A DNA stretch of 6,492 bases, from IMG/VR virus record IMGVR_UViG_2537561930_000009. One strand, 5' to 3'. Shown one piece after another: positions 1 to 6,492 of this stretch. A model generated the notes under the pieces. It saw only the letters and a program-made list of their open reading frames with translations. It had not been told where the DNA came from and did not search any database. The DNA comes from a virus. Its lineage: Duplodnaviria > Heunggongvirae > Uroviricota > Caudoviricetes. Numbering within the stretch: position 1 is the first letter of the stretch; the number at the start of each line of letters is the position of its first letter. The position numbers were made by a program, and so were the translations under genes.

Positions 1-10
1 TTTAGTGTAA

Positions 11-116
11 TGTTCTCAGATTGCGGCTTTAATTCTTGATTTGTGTTCTTTATTATGCTTTTGTCATTAACTTGTTTTTATGTTCTTTATTTGTGTTCTT
101 GGGTTGGTAAGGTTGG
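11..116. repeat. Short direct repeats in AT-rich leader: TGTTCT(T/C) at 11-17, 44-50, 81-87 and 94-100, ATTTGTGTTCTT at 39-50 and 89-100, and GGTTGG at 102-107 and 111-116; function unknown (iteron-like or protein-binding sites possible)
   Basis: Read directly from the sequence; no coding frame covers the region. Functional assignment is speculative. Confidence 0.25.
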
Positions 117-289
117 GAGAATTAATAGAGAAAACGTATCTCATTGATGATTTTTATCATGTTTCCCTAGTTTTACATGATTTCCTTTCTTAAAAAAAGA
201 TGATGAATATCAATTAGTTATTATTATATTGTTGTTCGTTTCATGCATTTCGGGAGGAGAACAAAAGATGATTTGGCTTAAATATTCAC

Positions 290-367
290 CTTTGCGTTTT
301 TCGTTTTGCTTTGCCTTTTTCATGCAAATTTGCTAGAAATAAGCAAAGATTTAATTATTAAGCAAAG
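290..367 (+). promoter_or_regulatory. Putative sopA promoter/operator with repeated CTTTGC/GCAAAG hexamers and a 10-bp palindrome
   Basis: CTTTGC at 290-295 and 309-314, GCAAAG at 343-348 and 362-367, perfect palindrome GCAAATTTGC at 324-333. Candidate -35 TTGCTA (330-335) and -10 TAATTA (353-358) with 17-bp spacing. GGAG at 377-380 sits 8 nt before the sopA ATG. In F plasmid, SopA autorepresses via CTTTGC repeats in its own promoter (established knowledge); exact sites here are inferred. Confidence 0.45.
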
Positions 368-388
368 TTACAAGCTGGAGATGACAGT

Positions 389-1555
389 ATGTCTTTGAAA
401 AAGTTATTGCAAGATTGTGTTACGAGAGGTCAAGAAATGACCAAAGCAATTGCTATCGCTCAATTCGGTGATGATAGTCCTGAAGCTCGGCGTATCACCC
501 GCCGATGGGGTATAACTGAAGTAGCAGATTTAATTGGTGTAACTCCTCAAGCAATTAGAGATGCTGAAAAGAGCGGGCGTTTACCTGCACCTGACTTTGA
601 AATGAGAGGAAGAATTGAACGTCGTGCTGGTTATACCATAGATCAAATCAACAGTATGCGAGCAGTTTTTGGCAACCCAAACCAACGACCACAAGATAAA
701 AACCCTGTTGTGCTTGCCGTTATGTCACACAAAGGCGGCGTTTATAAAACATCGTCTGCGGTGCATCAAGCTCAATGGTTAGCATTACAAGGTCATCGTG
801 TTCTTTTGGTTGAAGGTAACGATCCTCAAGGCACGGCCTCTATGTATCACGGTTATGTTCCTGATTTACATATCCATGCCGAGGATACTTTACTGCCATT
901 TTACTTAGGAGAACGCGATAACGCTGAATATGCTATAAAGCCAACATGTTGGCCTGGGCTAGACATTATCCCTAGCTGCCTAGCTTTACATCGTATAGAA
1001 ACAGATCTCATGCAATATCATGCTCAGGGTAAATTGCCTCATCCTCCACACCTTATGCTACGCGCAGCTATTGAATCAGTTTGGGATAACTACGATGTTA
1101 TCGTTATAGATAGTGCTCCGAACCTCGGTACAGGAACCATTAACGTTGTTTGTGCCGCTGACGTTATTGTTGTTGCTACACCTGCAGAATTATTTGATTA
1201 CGCTTCTGTTCTGCAGTTTTTCACAATGCTTCTCGATCTATTGGAAAGCGTTGACCTAGGTGGATTTGAGCCAACCGTTCGCTTACTTCTGACTAAATAT
1301 AGTCTCACTACAGGGAATCAATCACGATGGATGGAAGAACAAATAAGAAATACATGGGGATCAATGGTATTACGTCAGGTTGTACGCGTTACCGATGAAG
1401 TAGGTAAAGGCCAGATAAAAATGAGAACAGTATTTGAACAAGCAGCAAACCAACGTTCAACATTGAATGCATGGAGAAATGCTGTTTCTATATGGGACCC
1501 TGTTTGCCGAGAAATTTTTGATGATCTAATAAAACCTCGCTGGGAGAACGAATAA
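389..1555 (+). CDS. sopA: Plasmid partition ATPase SopA (ParA family, type Ia)
   Basis: 388-aa ORF with deviant Walker A KGGVYKTS and an N-terminal extension typical of autoregulatory type Ia ParA. Long stretches match the remembered F-plasmid SopA (e.g. EMTKAIAIAQF, LLVEGNDPQGTASMYHG, WPGLDIIPSCLALHRIE, VIDSAPNLG, RMRTVFEQA). SD GGAG lies 8 nt upstream. Confidence 0.95.
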   Translation: MSLKKLLQDCVTRGQEMTKAIAIAQFGDDSPEARRITRRWGITEVADLIGVTPQAIRDAEKSGRLPAPDFEMRGRIERRAGYTIDQINSMRAVFGNPNQRPQDKNPVVLAVMSHKGGVYKTSSAVHQAQWLALQGHRVLLVEGNDPQGTASMYHGYVPDLHIHAEDTLLPFYLGERDNAEYAIKPTCWPGLDIIPSCLALHRIETDLMQYHAQGKLPHPPHLMLRAAIESVWDNYDVIVIDSAPNLGTGTINVVCAADVIVVATPAELFDYASVLQFFTMLLDLLESVDLGGFEPTVRLLLTKYSLTTGNQSRWMEEQIRNTWGSMVLRQVVRVTDEVGKGQIKMRTVFEQAANQRSTLNAWRNAVSIWDPVCREIFDDLIKPRWENE

Positions 1556-2520
1556 TGAAACAGCGCTCTCTTCTGAAAAATGCTCCAGATATTAATCGCA
1601 TTATGAGTAATAATCATCATGCCCCTGAACATCAGCCCGTATCACCTATAGTTGGTGATTTAAAACGTCAACTGAGTTCATTAACCGGTAACAGCATAAC
1701 TTTGCCAGTATGCGGACGTAATGTTAACTTTAAGTTAGAGACAATTCCCGCAGATAAAGTTGAAATGGCAACAATGGTATGGCTAGGTAATGAACGCGAT
1801 CAAGATTTATTAAATGAATCCTCTCTAGCCGATTTAATCCCATCTTTTCTAACGTCTGGACAACAAAATCCAGCTTTCGCCAGAAAAGTATCTGGAATCG
1901 TTGAAGTCGCTGACGGCTCACGTAGAAGAAAAGCAGCGATATTAACAGGATGTGACTATCGCGTCTTAATTGGTGATCTCGACGATGAACAGATGCATTG
2001 GTTATCCCAAATTGGTAACGATTATAGGCCTATTAGTGCATACGAAAGAGGAAAGAGATACTTACGCAAGCTAAATGACTTTGATGGTAACGTTAAAGCA
2101 TTAGCCGAGGCTGAAAATATAGATAGAAATATTATCACTCGCTGTATCAATACAGCTGGTCTACCAAAAGATATATTAGCTATCTTCAATCATCCAGGAG
2201 AACTGTCAGCTCGTGCTGGAGATTCTTTGTTTAAGGTTTACAAAAAAAACATGGCTGCCATGAGCAATGCTGCTCATCATCTTCTGGCAATTAAAAAAAA
2301 CGGCGAGGATTTAGAATCTTCACGGATTATACAAATACTATCTGACTCTGTTCTGGTTGGCGACGAGGAAAAAACAAAAGACGAGAAAAAATATGGGGAA
2401 GGGATTACTGCTAGATATAAAGGTAATTTTGTAACTATAAAAATTGATAGCCGAAAAATATCTAAAGAAATACTAAGCAGAATTGAGTTGTTACTAGAGG
2501 AACAATCTACTGATAATTAA
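1555..2520 (+). CDS. sopB: Plasmid partition centromere-binding protein SopB (ParB family)
   Basis: 321-aa ORF whose start overlaps the sopA stop (TAATG, translational coupling). Matches remembered F SopB motifs (ITLPVCGR, WLGNERDQDLL, LIPSFLTSGQQNPAF, VADGSRRRKAA, DDEQM, GNDYRPISAYERG, ITRCINTA, HPGELSAR). Confidence 0.93.
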   Translation: MKQRSLLKNAPDINRIMSNNHHAPEHQPVSPIVGDLKRQLSSLTGNSITLPVCGRNVNFKLETIPADKVEMATMVWLGNERDQDLLNESSLADLIPSFLTSGQQNPAFARKVSGIVEVADGSRRRKAAILTGCDYRVLIGDLDDEQMHWLSQIGNDYRPISAYERGKRYLRKLNDFDGNVKALAEAENIDRNIITRCINTAGLPKDILAIFNHPGELSARAGDSLFKVYKKNMAAMSNAAHHLLAIKKNGEDLESSRIIQILSDSVLVGDEEKTKDEKKYGEGITARYKGNFVTIKIDSRKISKEILSRIELLLEEQSTDN

Positions 2521-2524
2521 GAAG

Positions 2525-2547
2525 TATCCCCTGCATTGCAGGGGATA
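2525..2547. terminator. Perfect palindrome TATCCCCTGCA-T-TGCAGGGGATA between convergent sopB and the invertase; likely bidirectional intrinsic terminator (alternatively a protein-binding site)
   Basis: 11-bp perfect arms read directly; effective stem about 9 bp with a 5-nt loop; flanked by T-containing tracts on both strands (TTGATTTAT on plus). Sits in the 49-bp gap between two convergent stop codons. Confidence 0.4.
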
Positions 2548-2569
2548 TTGATTTATGGTTGTACTCCAG

Positions 2570-3124
2570 TCAATGATTCCCAGCCGGAAACCTGCGGTAA
2601 AGCGTGGATAAAGCAACATCGAAGATAATCGCTATCTGTTTACGTGAAACACCATTCACAATAAGCCTTCCGACCTGTTCCCATTGCTCGGGTGCCAGTT
2701 TTGAGCGGCGCCCCCCTATCCTACCGTTAGCCCTTGCCACCGCTAATCCTGCACGCGTTCTTTCAATAATATTTTCCCGCTCCATCTCTGCGACCGCACT
2801 CAGCATTGTGTAGGCAAAGCGGCCAATTGATGTGCTAATTTTTATTCCTTCTGTAACAGAAATAAATTCAATGTTGTTTGATAAAAAATAGTTAAGCAAT
2901 TCAACAAGATGAATCAGAGAACGCCCCATTCTGTCCAGCTTCCAGACAATAACCGTATCACCCGGTCGTAACGCTTTTATCAGCTTATCCAGTCCTGGTC
3001 GTTTTGACTTCGCGCCAGATATTTTATCTTCAAAAATCCGGTCACATCCTGAACTCCTGAGCGCTTCCAGTTGTAACTCCAAATTCTGGTCAAAAGTTGA
3101 CACTCTCGCATAGCCGTATTGCAT
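2570..3124 (-). CDS. Serine recombinase, DNA invertase of the Gin/Cin/Pin/Hin family
   Basis: 184-aa ORF. N-terminal catalytic motif GYARVSTFDQ with the putative active-site serine at residue 9, then IFEDKISG, VWKLDRMGRS, AEMEREN.IERT, GRIGGRR and a C-terminal HTH (GVSRKQIAIIFDVALSTLYRRF). Lies adjacent to an inverted-repeat-bounded segment. By eye roughly half of residues match remembered Gin/Cin/Pin. Confidence 0.93.
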   Translation of the reverse strand: MQYGYARVSTFDQNLELQLEALRSSGCDRIFEDKISGAKSKRPGLDKLIKALRPGDTVIVWKLDRMGRSLIHLVELLNYFLSNNIEFISVTEGIKISTSIGRFAYTMLSAVAEMERENIIERTRAGLAVARANGRIGGRRSKLAPEQWEQVGRLIVNGVSRKQIAIIFDVALSTLYRRFPAGNH

Positions 3125-3188
3125 ACTTTCTAACCTGCAATTGTTGCTGAAAGCGGGAAAAAATATCGTTCAGACGACACGGAGGCAA

Positions 3189-3214
3189 TTCTCAAAAACC
3201 TCGGTTTACAGGAA
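3189..3214. repeat. Left crossover site (gix/cix-like), TTCTCAAAAACCTCGGTTTACAGGAA, predicted central dinucleotide at 3201-3202
   Basis: Near-identical to the remembered Mu gix site (TTATCCAAAACCTCGGTTTACAGGAA). Its reverse complement recurs at the right window edge; the perfect inverted repeat spans 3194-3222 versus 6464-6492 (29 bp). Confidence 0.85.
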
Positions 3215-4363
3215 ACGGTAAATCAGGCTTCTGGCGCATTACAGAAAAACCAGAACGGCGCAGATATTCCCGATAAAAAACTATTCCTGCGTAATATCGG
3301 CACAACAAATTCAACAACCATGTCTTTTAGTGGTGGTACAGGATGGTTCAGGCTGGCAACTGTAACCATGCCCCAGGCCAGTTCCGTGGTTTACATAAGC
3401 CTGATTGGTGGTGCAGGGTATAACGTTGGCTCCCCGCATCAAGCAGGCATCTCTGAGCTGGTTCTTCGTGCGGGAAATGGGAATCCAAAAGGTCTTACCG
3501 GTGCGTTATGGCGACGGACATCGGTTGGACTTACTAATTTTGCATGGGTGAATACATCCGGTGATACCTATGATGTTTATGTTGAAATAGGTAATTACGC
3601 CACACGTGTTAATATTCAGTGGGATTATACCAGTAACGCCAGCGTAACGATTCATACATCACCATCTTATACAGCGAATAAACCAACAGGCCTGACAGAT
3701 GGAACTGTATATGTAATTTACAGTTCGCACATTAAACCGACTGCTGCTGAGGTTGGGGCGTTGTCATTATCTGGCGGTCAATTGAATGGTGCACTGGGCA
3801 TCGGAACATCCAGTGCTCTTGGCGGTAACTCGATTGTTTTGGGTGATAATGACACCGGATTCAAACAGAATGGTGATGGTATTCTGGATGTTTACGCTAA
3901 TAGTCAGCGAGTATTCCGCTTTAAGAATGATGCAGCTTTTTCTTTAAAAAAATTGCTGATCGGAGATAGTAAAACTTTTTCATTATCAAGTTCAAACACA
4001 TCCACTAAGAACGTAATCTTTAATCTATGGGGTACCTCTACTCGTCCTGTTGTAGCTGAATTAGGTGATGATTCAGGATGGCATTTCTATAGCCAGCGAA
4101 ATACAGATAACTCGGTAATATTTTCTGTTAACGGTCAGATACAGCCCAGCAACTGGGGGAATTTTGATTCACGCTATGTAAAAGATGTTCGCCTGGGTAC
4201 ACGTGTTGTTCAGACTATGCAAAAAGGTGTGATGTATGAAAAATCAGGTCATGTAATTACAGGGCTTGGCATTATTGGCGCTGTTGATGGTGATGACCCA
4301 GCAGTATTCAGACCAATACAAAAATACATCAATGGCACATGGTATAACGTCGCACAGGTGTAA
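3194..4363 (+). CDS. Tail-fibre C-terminal variable region, arm 1 (Sv-like); 5'-partial exon that needs fusion to the constant part by inversion
   Basis: The frame is open from 3134 and runs through the crossover site (encoding KNLGLQETVN) in frame into the 347-aa ORF listed at 3320..4363; a stop at 3131-3133 closes the frame upstream. Ends ...RPIQKYINGTWYNVAQV, resembling remembered side-tail-fibre C-termini. No plausible independent start, consistent with Mu S / P1 S organisation. Confidence 0.85.
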   Translation, partial: KNLGLQETVNQASGALQKNQNGADIPDKKLFLRNIGTTNSTTMSFSGGTGWFRLATVTMPQASSVVYISLIGGAGYNVGSPHQAGISELVLRAGNGNPKGLTGALWRRTSVGLTNFAWVNTSGDTYDVYVEIGNYATRVNIQWDYTSNASVTIHTSPSYTANKPTGLTDGTVYVIYSSHIKPTAAEVGALSLSGGQLNGALGIGTSSALGGNSIVLGDNDTGFKQNGDGILDVYANSQRVFRFKNDAAFSLKKLLIGDSKTFSLSSSNTSTKNVIFNLWGTSTRPVVAELGDDSGWHFYSQRNTDNSVIFSVNGQIQPSNWGNFDSRYVKDVRLGTRVVQTMQKGVMYEKSGHVITGLGIIGAVDGDDPAVFRPIQKYINGTWYNVAQV

Positions 4364-4894
4364 GTGATGCAGCATTTAAAAAACATCAGATCTGGAAATC
4401 CAAAAACAAAAGAACAATATCAGCTAACAAAGAATTTTGATGTTATCTGGTTATGGTCCGAAGACGATAAAAACTGGTATGAGGAAGTGAAAAACTTTCA
4501 ACCAGACACAATAAAGATTGTTTACGATGAAAATAATATTATTGTCGCCATCACCAAAGATGCATCCACGCTTAACCCTGAAGGTTTTAGCGTCGTTGAG
4601 GTTCCCGATATTACAGCCAACCGACGTGCTGATGACTCCGGGAAGTGGATGTTTAAGGATGGAGCTGTGGTTAAACGGATTTATACGGCAGACGAACAGC
4701 AACAACAGGCCGAATCACAAAAGGCCGCATTGCTTTCCGAAGCTGAATCAGTCATCCAGCCGCTGGAACGCGCTGTCAGGCTGAATATGGCAACAGACGA
4801 GGAGCGCACACGACTGGAAGCATGGGAACGCTACAGTGTTCTGGTCAGCCGTGTGGATACGGCAAATCCTGAATGGCCACAAAAGCCTGAATAA
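4364..4894 (+). CDS. Tail-fibre assembly protein (U/Tfa family), arm 1
   Basis: 176-aa ORF immediately after Sv (GTG at 4364, ATG at 4367). Resembles remembered Tfa chaperones ([28 protein letters not shown]...[22 protein letters not shown]). N-terminal and central parts are shared with the U' remnant on the other arm. Confidence 0.9.
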
Positions 4895-4899
4895 AAATT

Positions 4900-4919
4900 A
4901 AGGCCCGATAGCGGGCCTT
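4900..4919. terminator. Bidirectional intrinsic terminator hairpin between convergent U and U' (AAGGCCCG-ATAG-CGGGCCTT)
   Basis: 8-bp GC-rich stem with 4-nt loop; A-run upstream (TTTTT on the minus strand after the hairpin) and GTTTCATT downstream on plus; sits between the two convergent stop codons. Confidence 0.5.
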
Positions 4920-4922
4920 GTT

Positions 4923-5273
4923 TCATTCTGGTTGTTCTGGAAACGTTACTGGCAGGCTGGAGGTGTCTGTAGATTCGACTTTCTGCGCATAGAGCATCCA
5001 CTCGGTTAATTTTTGTTTATTCTCGTCGGAAATGATACCCAGCCGTAGCTGTGAGTCCCATAGCTGTGTTTTATCCCTGACGAGCTGTAGCAGGCTTTGC
5101 TTTTCATTTTCCGCTTGTTGCCTCTGCTCTTCCTCGGTATAAGTTCGCTTTATCACTACGCCATCTTTGAACATCCATTTACCCGAAATATCAGCCCGGC
5201 GATTTGCTGTAATATCAGGAACCTCAACGACACTTTTTCCCTCCGGGCAAATTGCAGTCACATCCTTTTGCAC
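4923..5273 (-). CDS. Tail-fibre assembly protein (U'/Tfa family), arm 2; N-terminally disrupted, probable pseudogene as sequenced
   Basis: 116-aa ORF from GTG, aligning with U residues 61-176. The homologous start (ATGATG at 5457..5452, 3 nt after the Sv' stop) encodes [21 protein letters not shown], then a TAA at 5394..5392. Relative to U there is one extra base near the T-run at 5396-5398, and the downstream frame continues ...TKNSGVVWLWTEDGKNWYEE. Confidence 0.6.
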   Translation of the reverse strand: MQKDVTAICPEGKSVVEVPDITANRRADISGKWMFKDGVVIKRTYTEEEQRQQAENEKQSLLQLVRDKTQLWDSQLRLGIISDENKQKLTEWMLYAQKVESTDTSSLPVTFPEQPE

Positions 5274-5459
5274 GTCGCATATAACATTATTTTCATCATA
5301 TGCAATTTTTATAGTGTCGTCCTGAAAGTTCTTTTGTTCCTCATACCAGTTCTTACCATCTTCGGTCCATAACCAGACGACGCCTGAGTTTTTAGTTTAA
5401 AAGATATTGTTCTTTGGTTTTTGGATTGCCTGGCTTTATGTTTTTTAAATGCATCATAA

Positions 5460-6221
5460 TCAAATACTCGATACGTTATACCATGTGCCATTAATATTTT
5501 TTTGAATTGGTCTGTAATAAACACCACCAATATTATCGGCAGAGTGTGAGCCTGTATCCTGAACAATTATTCCGGTATATGCGCAACCAGATGGAGCCTG
5601 ATGTGTCCATGTTGTGCCATTATTTGCTGGTTTGTATGATGATGCGCCACCAAGTCGGATATCACGTACATAACGGGAGTCAAAATTACCATAATTGCCG
5701 GGAATAATTTGCGAGCCGCAAAGCCAATTCCCGTTATTATCCATGTACGCCTGACCATCGGTGCCATTGTCTGTCCTTGAGTTATTAATCATGTAGATGC
5801 CAAATTGCCTATTCCCCAGTCCACCAATCATAAATTTGCGGTCAGCATGGTCCTGACGTAGCAATGCCTGGGCGCTATCAGTTTTAACTATATTTCTCCC
5901 AAAGATAGCGTTGTTATCGCGCATCTGAATCCACATACCATTACTGCTGTTAATAGCAAAACGGTTTGCAAATATATCCCCTGTAACATCAAGACCATGC
6001 CCCATGCTTATCCGACCAGTTCTAAGATTAAGCGTAAAGGGGCGTAGTGGCCCTATATCACCATTTTCTCCCTCGTTCTCTCGTGTAGGGATGATATGCA
6101 GGCATTCTTCAGAACGGCGAAAAATGGCACCAAAAGATGAATTAAATATCCTCAGTGCATTGACTGTCGATATTTTTACTTCACTGCTAGAAAAGGGCTT
6201 TAACAAGGACAGACAAAGCAT
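5460..6221 (-). CDS. Tail-fibre C-terminal variable region, arm 2 (Sv'-like), C-terminal portion; out of frame with the crossover-site frame
   Basis: 253-aa ORF ending ...YYRPIQKNINGTWYNVSSI and sharing GNFDSRYVRDIRLG with arm 1. Its frame is open only from 6233 and is +1 relative to the frame entering from the right crossover site. Confidence 0.7.
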   Translation of the reverse strand: MLCLSLLKPFSSSEVKISTVNALRIFNSSFGAIFRRSEECLHIIPTRENEGENGDIGPLRPFTLNLRTGRISMGHGLDVTGDIFANRFAINSSNGMWIQMRDNNAIFGRNIVKTDSAQALLRQDHADRKFMIGGLGNRQFGIYMINNSRTDNGTDGQAYMDNNGNWLCGSQIIPGNYGNFDSRYVRDIRLGGASSYKPANNGTTWTHQAPSGCAYTGIIVQDTGSHSADNIGGVYYRPIQKNINGTWYNVSSI

Positions 6222-6492
6222 CCCATTTAAGAGTCATCAGGTCTTTTGTTGTGGTGCTCTGGCGGCTTCTCCATTTGAAATATTCATTGCCGTTGTCGCC
6301 TGTTTCAAACCACATGAATGAATCAGTGTCGCTGTCGGCATTATTTTTAAAACCAATCTTTGCCCAGTCAGTATTTCTAACCCAGGCAAGGATTGAGTCG
6401 TTTTCAAAAGTAAGCCCACCGGACAAGGTATCGCCATTCTTTTGCACGGCGTTCCTGGCCCTGTTTACCGTTTCCTGTAAACCGAGGTTTTT
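6187..6492 (-). CDS. 3' end of the tail-fibre gene as currently joined (constant part beyond the window, reading through the right crossover site); terminates at TAG 6189..6187
   Basis: Minus-strand frame is open from the window edge: KNLGLQETVNRARNAVQKNGDTLSGGLTFENDSILAWVRNTDWAKIGFKNN...FMWFETGDNGNEYFKWRSRQSTTTKDLMTLKWDALSVLVKALF*. These motifs resemble remembered side-tail-fibre proteins. 5'-partial at the window end. Confidence 0.75.
   Translation of the reverse strand, partial: KNLGLQETVNRARNAVQKNGDTLSGGLTFENDSILAWVRNTDWAKIGFKNNADSDTDSFMWFETGDNGNEYFKWRSRQSTTTKDLMTLKWDALSVLVKALF
6472..6492. repeat. Right crossover site (gix/cix-like), TTCCTGTAAACCGAGGTTTTT..., truncated by the window end; predicted central dinucleotide at 6484-6485
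   Basis: Reverse complement of the left site; matches the remembered gix sequence TTCCTGTAAACCGAGGTTTTGGATAA over the visible 21 bp. Confidence 0.85.

Follow-up and report, generated by a model that had tools for sequence, protein, structure and literature searches.

A predicted Mu/P1-type tail-fibre inversion module beside the partition genes of an N15-like phage-plasmid

Described inversion systems and the present locus

In the G segment of phage Mu, the constant part of the fibre gene is followed by a gix site, the cassettes Sv-U and U'-Sv', a second gix site, and then the invertase gene gin, reading outward. The locus described here, in a window of 6,492 nucleotides (the whole stretch of DNA analysed), follows the same order; the sites match at 24 of 26 positions, the inner half-sites and the first codons of both fibre tips are identical, the chaperones share 87–95% identity with those of Mu, and one tip shares 70% with Mu S. 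The differences lie in the invertase, with only 55% identity to Gin; in the fibre, which appears to be of the lambda Stf type and to belong to a siphovirus, rather than the S fibre of a myovirus; and in the host element, apparently a linear plasmid prophage rather than a transposing phage. The C segment of P1 with its invertase Cin (and likewise P7, D6, and Min of p15B) is similar in another respect, as an invertible fibre-tip segment on a prophage kept as a plasmid. The U-type chaperone is 99.4% identical to that of P1. In P1, as for Gin and Hin, the recombinational enhancer is within the 5' region of the invertase gene, and the candidate stretch here is placed correspondingly. However, cin, although on the same side of its segment, reads towards it; the cix sites have a TT centre and other half-sites; P1, a myovirus, is maintained as a circular plasmid with ParAB; and p15B has six sites, against the two present here.

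Two further groups share parts of this arrangement. The lambda-like e14, Rac, and Qin prophages of E. coli K-12 (Pin, PinR, and PinQ; stf/tfa) have a Pin-type invertase that inverts the segment coding for the C-terminal part of the side tail fibre, along with tfa; e14 Pin, at 60% identity, is the nearest classic invertase to the one in the window. These prophages are defective and chromosomal, whereas the present locus belongs with apparently complete, extrachromosomal linear phage genomes. N15 (with phiKO2 and PY54) has a SopB of 74.5% identity, its sop and telN genes diverge around a telO palindrome, and its replication, immunity, and lambda-like tail genes are held in common, as judged through relatives of the window. 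N15 is without an invertase, though; its gene 25 (fibre) and a umuD-like gene adjoin sopB, and most E. coli N15-like plasmids carry stf, a macro-domain gene, and tfa in that place. The E. coli ATCC 25922 plasmid and Yersinia phage vB_YpM_44 have an invertase of the clade found here (94% protein identity) along with the same sites, but that setting is a circular RepA plasmid with a contractile tail and a baseplate-attached fibre.

We interpret the locus as an ordinary DNA-inversion switch of the Mu/P1 type, predicted to exchange the tail-fibre tip and unusual only in its place, adjoining N15-like partition genes; such a switch in that position does not seem to have been described. A literature search yielded no account of telomere phages with such an invertase switch. 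The words "invertase", "inversion", and "recombinase" are absent from a 2025 survey of telomere phages, and "inversion" occurs once only in PMC9600943, in the title of a reference on the P1 C segment. The preliminary description had recognized a Gin/Cin/Pin-type switch, and the Mu gene order, the invertase domains, and the gix match bear it out. The features of the window are as follows.

389–1555, plus strand: sopA, ParA-type partition ATPase (NCBIfam SopA equivalog NF010259; Pfam AAA_31 and CbiA)
1555–2520, plus strand: sopB, ParB-type centromere-binding partner (NCBIfam PRK13698, Pfam SoPB_HTH)
2523–2549: G+C-rich hairpin (inverted repeat) between the convergent sopB and invertase genes, terminator-like on both strands
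2563–2565: mosaic joint between sequence homologous to invertase-free N15-like plasmids and sequence homologous to the invertase block that myovirus phage-plasmids carry
2570–3124, minus strand: serine DNA invertase of the Gin/Cin/Pin/Hin group, 184 aa (Pfam Resolvase and HTH_7; PHROG 125, DNA invertase)
3035–3106, minus strand: candidate Fis-bound enhancer within the invertase gene, equivalent by 5'-end alignment to the annotated P1 Cin enhancer (cin bases 19–90)
3189–3214: invertase-side gix-like site, TTCTCAAAAACC-TC-GGTTTACAGGAA, matching Mu gixL/gixR at 24/26; crossover dinucleotide 3201–3202
3194–4363, plus strand: fibre-tip cassette Sv, an open frame of 389 codons from the site onward (PHROG tail fibre families)
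4364–4894, plus strand: U-type tail fibre assembly chaperone of the plus cassette (Pfam Caudo_TAP)
4899–4920: hairpin between the convergent chaperone genes, terminator-like on both strands
4923–5457, minus strand: U'-type chaperone of the minus cassette, with a 1-base insertion near 5396 (Caudo_TAP)
5460–6492, minus strand: fibre-tip cassette Sv', occupying the expressed position next to the constant part of the fibre, with a 1-base insertion near 6189
6472–6492: second site, inverted, 21 of 26 bases, cut by the contig end; crossover dinucleotide 6484–6485

The plasmid-prophage setting

The F-type SopAB operon reported earlier is real and of the N15 type. SopA scores 734.6 bits against an equivalog cut-off of 725 (NCBIfam NF010259) and SopB 404.6 bits against 274 (NCBIfam PRK13698); the 74.5% identity of SopB is to N15 gp27 (gene 27), and the operon diverges from telN in relatives. 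The module had been placed 50 bp past sopB, in agreement with the end of sopB at 2520, 49 nt ahead of the end of the invertase ORF. The hairpin in this interval is likely, from its sequence, to be a two-way terminator. As a plasmid maintenance operon, sopAB adjoins the switch.

Relatives with 99.7–100% identity to positions 1–3227 of the window are plasmid-sized contigs of 43–46 kb that encode a protelomerase and, as repA, a replication gene of the CyRepA1 type. They also have a telO palindrome and tail genes resembling those of lambda (U, G, T, tape measure, L, J, lom, and stf), with cB, cro, and Q among their plasmid-prophage genes. The protelomerase, repA, and tail genes are known from these relatives and lie outside the window itself; the centre of the telO palindrome, as seen in relatives, would fall about 57 nt from the window start. 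The telO centre is the starting point of one relative contig and the fold point of another. Because the relatives are near-identical and possess protelomerase, telO, repA, and J/lom/stf, the element is predicted to be a linear N15-like telomere phage-plasmid of E. coli, not a P1-like one. The relatives thereby uphold the earlier proposal of a prophage maintained as a plasmid and make it more exact, as linear and N15-like; phage structural and replication genes, which the same proposal would have sought in the flanks, are present in those relatives as the tail genes and the CyRepA1-type replication gene.

The contrary possibility, also raised at the outset, was that of a cryptic prophage in the chromosome whose match to sopAB is spurious. 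We found no support for it and rule it out, leaving it a negligible probability: SopA and SopB lie above curated equivalog cut-offs, the stretch from sopB to the invertase has all 48 of its 48 matching places in 5,426 complete E. coli genomes on plasmids and none on a chromosome, and the relatives are 43–46 kb contigs with protelomerase and telO.

Invertase, crossover sites, and inversion

The invertase gives Pfam matches to Resolvase (2.9e-45) and HTH_7 (1e-13), and its alignment with the known structures of Mu Gin (3UJ3 and 4M6F; E = 2e-62) is ungapped. It has the resolvase catalytic domain with Ser nucleophile and Arg/Asp, the C-terminal HTH, and the approximate length (~185–195 aa) that define the subgroup, and residues R7, S9, D64, R65, and R68 are the same as in Gin, Cin, and Pin; the catalytic residues, whose loss, together with a lack of read or PCR evidence of inversion, had been named beforehand as evidence against a switch, are thus intact. 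The divergence from Gin, Cin, and Pin that had been remarked on is evident, with identities of 55, 57, and 60%, respectively, against 75–82% among those three. The enzyme falls short of a kinship as close as that among the classic members, but this measures degree only and not membership of the subgroup, and we place the invertase, on sequence, as a separate clade within the Gin/Cin/Pin/Hin subgroup, an outgroup to Gin, Cin, and Pin. Its gene begins about 65 bp from the crossover site and, like gin in Mu, points out of the invertible segment; a simple scan for its promoter gave no sigma-70-like match. By eye, 3035–3106 retains two G-N13-C stretches with a spacing of about 49 bp. Since this stretch is coding sequence, its similarity to the P1 enhancer proves nothing, conservation there being inseparable from coding constraint. 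Dependence of the switch on Fis and an enhancer is presumed.

Of the two inverted 26-bp gix-like sites of the preliminary description, both are present and the first stands as described, at 24/26 to Mu gix, while the second has only 21 of its 26 bases in the window. In the first, the inner half and the following 13 bases have no differences from Mu. The second is complete in relatives, as TTATCGAATACC-TC-GGTTTACAGGAA, and at this full length the two form an inverted pair of 26-bp sites, both with a TC centre. In the window they coincide with the arms of a perfect 29-nt inverted repeat (3194–3222 and 6464–6492), and the 19-nt core AAACCTCGGTTTACAGGAA occurs in exactly two copies, inverted, against none expected (200 shuffles). 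The outermost bases of the second site, AAAAACC, are those of the invertase-side half-site; the fibre-gene side of every relative has GAATACC. It had also been claimed that the site is translated as KNLGLQETVN within the fibre ORF. Both junctions do read K-N-L-G-L-Q-E-T-V-N, in frame with the fibre tips, but the expressed junction in relatives is ...IEYLGLQETVN, and KNLGLQETVN belongs to the junction on the invertase side, which has no promoter.

In the proposed mechanism, the invertase would bind the two inverted 26-bp sites, 3.3 kb apart, swap strands at the central TC, and flip the intervening DNA. Because one site lies within the fibre gene, inversion would fuse the constant N-terminal part (to the right of the window, on the minus strand) to either of the alternative tips, each with an assembly chaperone gene of its own behind it. 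Two virion types of different adsorption specificity would then be present in a lysogen culture and in the phages that it releases, and the two orientations would presumably differ in actual host range.

Inversion in this lineage is supported by comparison with near-identical elements from other samples, since the same segment is found in both orientations among them. Relative L011 is 99.97% identical to the window over 1–3227, while 3198–6492 is inverted at 99.45% identity; a fold-back contig from one sample (L010) has the segment oppositely oriented on its two arms; and another cassette pair has one orientation in L012 and the opposite one in L013 and L017. All inversion breakpoints fall within the repeat. 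It could be argued that both orientations are assembly artefacts of the inverted repeat rather than biological inversion, given that many draft contigs, the window among them, end at or near a site (L014, L015, and L016 also do so) and that L010, with its fold-back structure and numerous small indels, is an unusual assembly. But the repeat is 25–29 nt, below a typical assembly word size and far below read length; opposite orientations occur in independent samples and in two cassette pairs, with breakpoints always exactly in the site; and the module is homologous to the experimentally proven switches Mu G and P1 C. We consider such an artefact highly improbable. The copy in the window presumably still inverts.

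Fibre-tip cassettes and the origin of the block

The two alternative cassettes of fibre tip plus chaperone reported earlier are present and convergent, as a plus-strand pair at 3194–4894 and a minus-strand pair at 6492–4923. The last 89 aa of the Sv cassette have 67% identity to the P1 S C-terminus, and the U-type chaperone, besides its near-identity to P1 U, is 94.9% identical to Mu U. Sv has neither a promoter nor a start of its own in the window orientation and is therefore silent there; in L011 it is fused to the constant fibre part. The hairpin between the chaperone genes is, like the first, a likely two-way terminator judging by its structure. Once repaired, the U'-type chaperone has 177 aa and 87% identity to Mu U', and Sv' has 343 codons, with 99% identity to the C-terminus of the 1011-aa fused fibre protein (Stf) of L010 and 70% to Mu S. 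In relatives the constant part belongs to a protein of 989–1057 aa that is encoded after J and lom and bears the N-terminal domain of lambda Stf (PF08400), and the fibre is probably a lambda-type side tail fibre (Stf). With the constant part seen in relatives, the arrangement is that of an invertible tail fibre: a site within the fibre gene, a constant part and alternative tips, and a chaperone for each. The word "complete", applied to the switch beforehand, claims too much: the constant N-terminal part and the promoter of the fibre gene lie outside the window, so that the module is incomplete within it, the second site has 21/26 bases, and the minus cassette is frameshifted.

These frameshifts bear on what the window copy could do. 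By tblastn, the frame of Sv' shifts between LVKALF and SSEVK, with an extra base near 6189, and that of U' between 5404 and 5396, where the window has AGTTTAAAAG and relatives have AGTTAAAAG, with an extra base near 5396; both extra bases are missing in L010 and L011. The insertions may be sequencing errors or real decay. If they are real, only the plus cassette could give a working side fibre, and the window copy would toggle between a working fibre and none. The switch would then be half dead, inversion serving to turn the side fibre on and off, or, without invertase expression, a decaying remnant. Side tail fibres are dispensable in lambda-like phages, and the stf of laboratory lambda carries a frameshift, which suits such a reading; so do the placing of both insertions in the 1.6-kb minus cassette, against none in the other ~4.3 kb of coding sequence, and the nature of the insertion at 6189, which is other than a change of homopolymer length. 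Yet the frameshifted ORFs are peculiar to this one assembly, relatives at 99.5% identity lack both insertions and are intact, the source is a 2013-era draft assembly, L010 itself has obvious 1-base errors, and two indels are too few for statistics. We regard a half-dead switch as a possibility, albeit a doubtful one.

Inversion might also serve the lysogen rather than the virion, the flip yielding a protein, derived from the fibre, that denies other phages their receptors. For PinQ, inversion of the e14 P segment is reported to make StfE2, which blocks T2 adsorption (PMC12529663), and the present module is of the same family and sits on a stably kept plasmid prophage. This reading is improbable in our estimation: in intact genomes of phage size the fibre gene is the last of a complete late tail operon (J, lom, stf), and a scan upstream of the silent cassette gave no promoter-like site. 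By analogy, the flip could be used in the lysogen in addition, free tip protein masking receptors, or, with one cassette inactivated, as a reversible side-fibre toggle; either use seems quite unlikely.

The reading we prefer, and hold to be very probable from sequence comparison, is that of an N15-like telomere phage whose Stf tip was made switchable by a 4.45-kb block acquired through recombination. The window would be one end of the linear plasmid-prophage, with the block gained beside sopAB. Matches to invertase-free N15-like plasmids end at 2565, and those to the ATCC 25922 plasmid and vB_YpM_44 begin at 2563. The block, from the invertase stop codon to ~0.5 kb within the fibre gene, is common to unrelated 48-kb myovirus phage-plasmids at 92–94% DNA identity. 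It is much more likely than use by the lysogen or a toggle, we suggest, that this clade of invertases and the 4.45-kb block of fibre tips that goes with it are a module traded specifically between unrelated phage-plasmid families. If that is so, telomere phages would gain a programmable host range, so far undescribed in them.

Layout of the fibre switch and its crossover sites

The window constitutes an entire 6,492-bp draft contig (AQFH01000052.1, assembly GCA_000356745.2), and no record covering at least 80% of it was found among PLSDB plasmids, INPHARED phages, or complete E. coli genomes. A preliminary description, made from the sequence alone, had proposed a Gin/Cin/Pin-type fibre switch adjoining F-type SopAB genes. 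Its inventory of an invertase, inverted sites, and two convergent cassettes of fibre tip and chaperone is correct, as judged from protein domains, the match to gix (the crossover site of Mu Gin), Caudo_TAP assignments, and tip homologies. The window yielded no Rfam hits at gathering thresholds.

Features of the window (minus strand where stated)
389-1555, sopA
1555-2520, sopB
2523-2549, G+C-rich hairpin
2570-3124, minus strand, serine recombinase gene (184 aa)
3189-3214, 26-bp crossover site
3194-4363, promoterless fibre-tip reading frame
4364-4894, chaperone of the 3194-4363 tip
4899-4920, second hairpin
5457-4923, minus strand, second chaperone
6492-5460, minus strand, second fibre tip
Right end of the window, inverted crossover-site copy, running off the contig end

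The description of this switch as complete requires adjustment. The invertase, the left site, and both cassettes are present; the promoter and the constant part of the fibre—the N-terminal part of stf—lie beyond 6492. Of the two 26-bp inverted sites reported, the one at 3189-3214 is whole and the right-hand copy has only 21 of its 26 bases in the window. The inverted repeat itself is perfect over 29 nt (3194-3222 and 6464-6492); two oppositely oriented copies of its 19-nt core are present, and no others, where 200 shuffles gave an expectation of 0. The full site, TTCTCAAAAACC-TC-GGTTTACAGGAA, agrees with Mu gix in 24 of its 26 positions, and the inner half-site and the next 13 bases are the same as in Mu. 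No extra crossover sites of the Min/p15B multi-site type were found within the segment.

The recombinase contains Resolvase and HTH_7 domains, aligns without a gap over 180 residues to the Gin crystal-structure sequences, and keeps R7, S9, D64, R65, and R68. Its identity to Gin, Cin, and Pin (55%, 57%, and 60%, respectively) is well below the 75-82% that those three share with one another, in line with the divergence noted earlier. Sequence comparison places it as a separate clade inside the DNA invertase subgroup, with sites nearly identical to gix. No convincing invertase promoter emerged from a promoter scan, which called 3 sites across the window where 16.8 were expected. Bases 19-90 of the invertase gene match the position of the annotated P1 Cin enhancer and keep, by eye, two G-N13-C stretches about 49 bp apart; because this candidate enhancer is coding sequence, we infer Fis dependence from the invertase family only.

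The genes are arranged as in the Mu G segment: the constant fibre part would run on across one site into a tip, followed by that tip's chaperone, and the other tip and chaperone, arranged convergently, would be silent. Transcribed outward from the segment, the invertase gene begins about 65 bp past the far site. Its product would bind the two sites, break the DNA at the central TC, and rotate, so that the constant part is fused to the other tip. By analogy with Mu and P1, the two states may differ in host range.

Both chaperones are Caudo_TAP proteins; one shares 99.4% identity with P1 U, and the other, once its frameshift is repaired, shares 87% with Mu U′. Identity to the variable part of Mu S is 70% for one tip, and the second tip is P1 S-like in its last 89 residues only. 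The pairing is mosaic: the tip resembling Mu S throughout its length precedes the U′-type chaperone, and the U-type chaperone (4364-4894) comes after the tip with the short P1 S-like end. Two 1-base insertions, one near 6189 and the other near 5396, shift the frame of the minus-strand cassette. Both are absent in relatives at 99.5% identity, and the frameshifted ORFs occur in the GCA_000356745.2 assembly alone, with no independent copies found. The insertions may reflect sequencing error or real decay.

Inversion among relatives

An exact-protein look-up with SopB recovered eight contigs with the same sopB–invertase junction, several of which hold the segment in alternative orientations. One (L011) is 99.97% identical to the window over 1-3227 and carries 3198-6492 reversed, at 99.45%. 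Another, L010 (WUUG01000004.1, 1-19997), is a 20-kb fold-back palindromic contig; the flanks of its two arms are mirror images, as expected of a fold-back, but the 3.3-kb segment is direct between arms, and the arms therefore hold it in opposite states. Further, contig L012 has a different cassette pair, inverted relative to that of L013 and L017 between identical flanks. A table of all junctions in the window and its relatives recovers two kinds of outer half-site: TTCTCAAAAACC, which adjoins the invertase, and TTATCGAATACC, which sits in the fibre gene and is translated ...IEYLGLQETVN. Both kinds are found joined to either tip.

Window positions 6486-6492 read AAAAACC on the minus strand, the invertase-side outer half-site, where all relatives have GAATACC on the fibre-gene side. 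The difference comprises two discriminating bases only; its simplest reading would be that flipped molecules in the sequenced culture supplied the last few bases of the contig. At this end, the stretch extending past the repeat has a length that fits an assembly word of about 30-31.

Draft assemblies of these elements break at the crossover site and the telomere, and most copies therefore lie on short contigs: the longest contig carrying this SopB is only 2-5 kb in 43 of the 60 index blocks listing it, and contigs L014, L015, and L016 are among many that end at or near the site. The same breaks leave the lineage nearly absent from finished genomes, with the sopB–invertase junction in only one of 5,426 complete E. 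coli genomes.

Relative to L010, 27 of the window's 32 substitutions cluster at 3338-4034, the N-terminal two thirds of the silent plus-strand cassette, and the rest of the 6.5 kb is nearly identical. This cluster looks like a recombination patch inside the fibre tip.

An N15-like backbone

The preliminary description had also suggested a prophage maintained as a plasmid, with a spurious sopAB match as a caveat. The match is genuine: SopA scores above the curated SopA equivalog cut-off and SopB above that of PRK13698. SopB is 74.5% identical to N15 gp27 and only 27% to P1 ParB, and relatives carry a protelomerase, leading us to reject a P1-like plasmid prophage. A chromosomal cryptic prophage is likewise rejected, given that the SopAB proteins pass their cut-offs and all 48 places matching window 2300-2800 (in 43 of the 5,426 complete E. 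coli genomes) are on plasmids, with none chromosomal. Plasmid maintenance is thus upheld by the N15-type SopAB here and by the protelomerase, telO, replication, and tail genes of relatives.

The closest finished relative, plasmid pZ1323HEC0355-3 (97.8% over window 25-3197), has a protelomerase gene divergent from sopA, a CyRepA1-type replication gene with cB/cro/Q-type regulators, and a full operon of lambda-like tail genes whose last members are J, lom, a 945-aa fibre protein (annotated "prophage tail fiber N-terminal domain"), and a convergent pair of chaperone genes. Relatives also contain, between telN and sopA, a 42-bp palindrome (ACATAATTCCCCATTATACGC followed by GCGTATAATGGGGAATTATGT) with the N15 telO core inside; from its position in relatives, the window starts about 57 nt right of the palindrome centre. 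One relative's contig begins at that centre, and L010 is symmetric about telO at ~8399; together these form the pattern that covalently closed hairpin ends would be expected to produce. The element thus belongs to the N15-like telomere phages, and its lambda-type side tail fibre is the one that can be switched. Both window ends look like assembly breaks of structural origin, the left one near a hairpin telomere with flanking repeats and the right one inside the crossover site of an invertible segment. L010 runs outward over both strands of the linear plasmid and contains many 1-base indels, including one that disrupts sopA at window position 804.

Between the telomere region and sopA, the direct repeat TTCTT(G/T)ATTTGTGTTCTT occurs at 33-50 and 83-100, 50 bp apart; it is kept in relatives, and further TGTTCT-like motifs lie nearby. 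The repeat might serve as a binding site that flanks the telomere or is linked to partition. Two relatives have ~21-23 nt (…GACTTTTTCATTTAACATT…) that are missing from the window between 24 and 25, and most database matches consequently begin at 25-28. Four CTTTGC motifs (two direct, two inverted) at 290-367 form a palindrome at 309-348, immediately before the start of sopA; the whole window has 9 against 4.3 expected. CTTTGC is the hexamer bound by SopA in the F sop promoter, and this cluster is therefore probably the sop operator. The F sopC-type centromere (TGGGACCNNGGTCCCA, up to 3 mismatches) was not found in the window.

Exchange of the block and its significance

Homology to N15-like plasmids without an invertase, in which stf, a macro-domain gene, and tfa lie next to sopB, ends at 2565, and homology to 48-kb myovirus phage-plasmids (an E. 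coli ATCC 25922 plasmid and Yersinia phage vB_YpM_44) begins at 2563. In L010 the replaced block (11008-15458, ~4.45 kb), which takes in the invertase, the two sites, the two cassettes, and the final half-kilobase of stf, is 92-94% identical to those phage-plasmids. Sequence comparison thus indicates that the whole block moves between unrelated phage-plasmid backbones. Among complete E. coli genomes, the invertase allele (>90% DNA identity) occurs on plasmids only, mostly the 48-kb myovirus phage-plasmids. Invertase-free N15-like E. coli plasmids (pAH01-1, 6117-10986) carry the macro-domain protein gene adjoining sopB, flanked by the gene for the side tail fibre and that for the fibre's chaperone; it is an unusual passenger for a fibre operon.

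The nearest functional analogues are Mu G/Gin, which shares the layout and sites; P1 C/Cin, likewise carried by a plasmid prophage; and e14/Rac/Qin with Pin, where the fibre is likewise a lambda-type side fibre. N15 itself lacks an invertase. Literature searches, which took in a 2025 survey of telomere phages, turned up no account of an invertase switch in them; this is an absence of evidence only, as subscription journals fell mostly outside the coverage. The feature is real, was correctly interpreted in the preliminary description, and is of a well-understood kind that would not surprise a specialist; the understanding of how such switches work is unchanged. It is of modest interest because it occurs in a telomere phage, its invertase clade is divergent, the whole block is exchanged between unrelated phage-plasmids, and inversion and hairpin ends leave footprints in assemblies. 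The classic Gin/Cin/Pin host-range switch is here extended to telomere phages (N15-like linear phage-plasmids), and to the lambda-type side tail fibre of an apparently intact phage.
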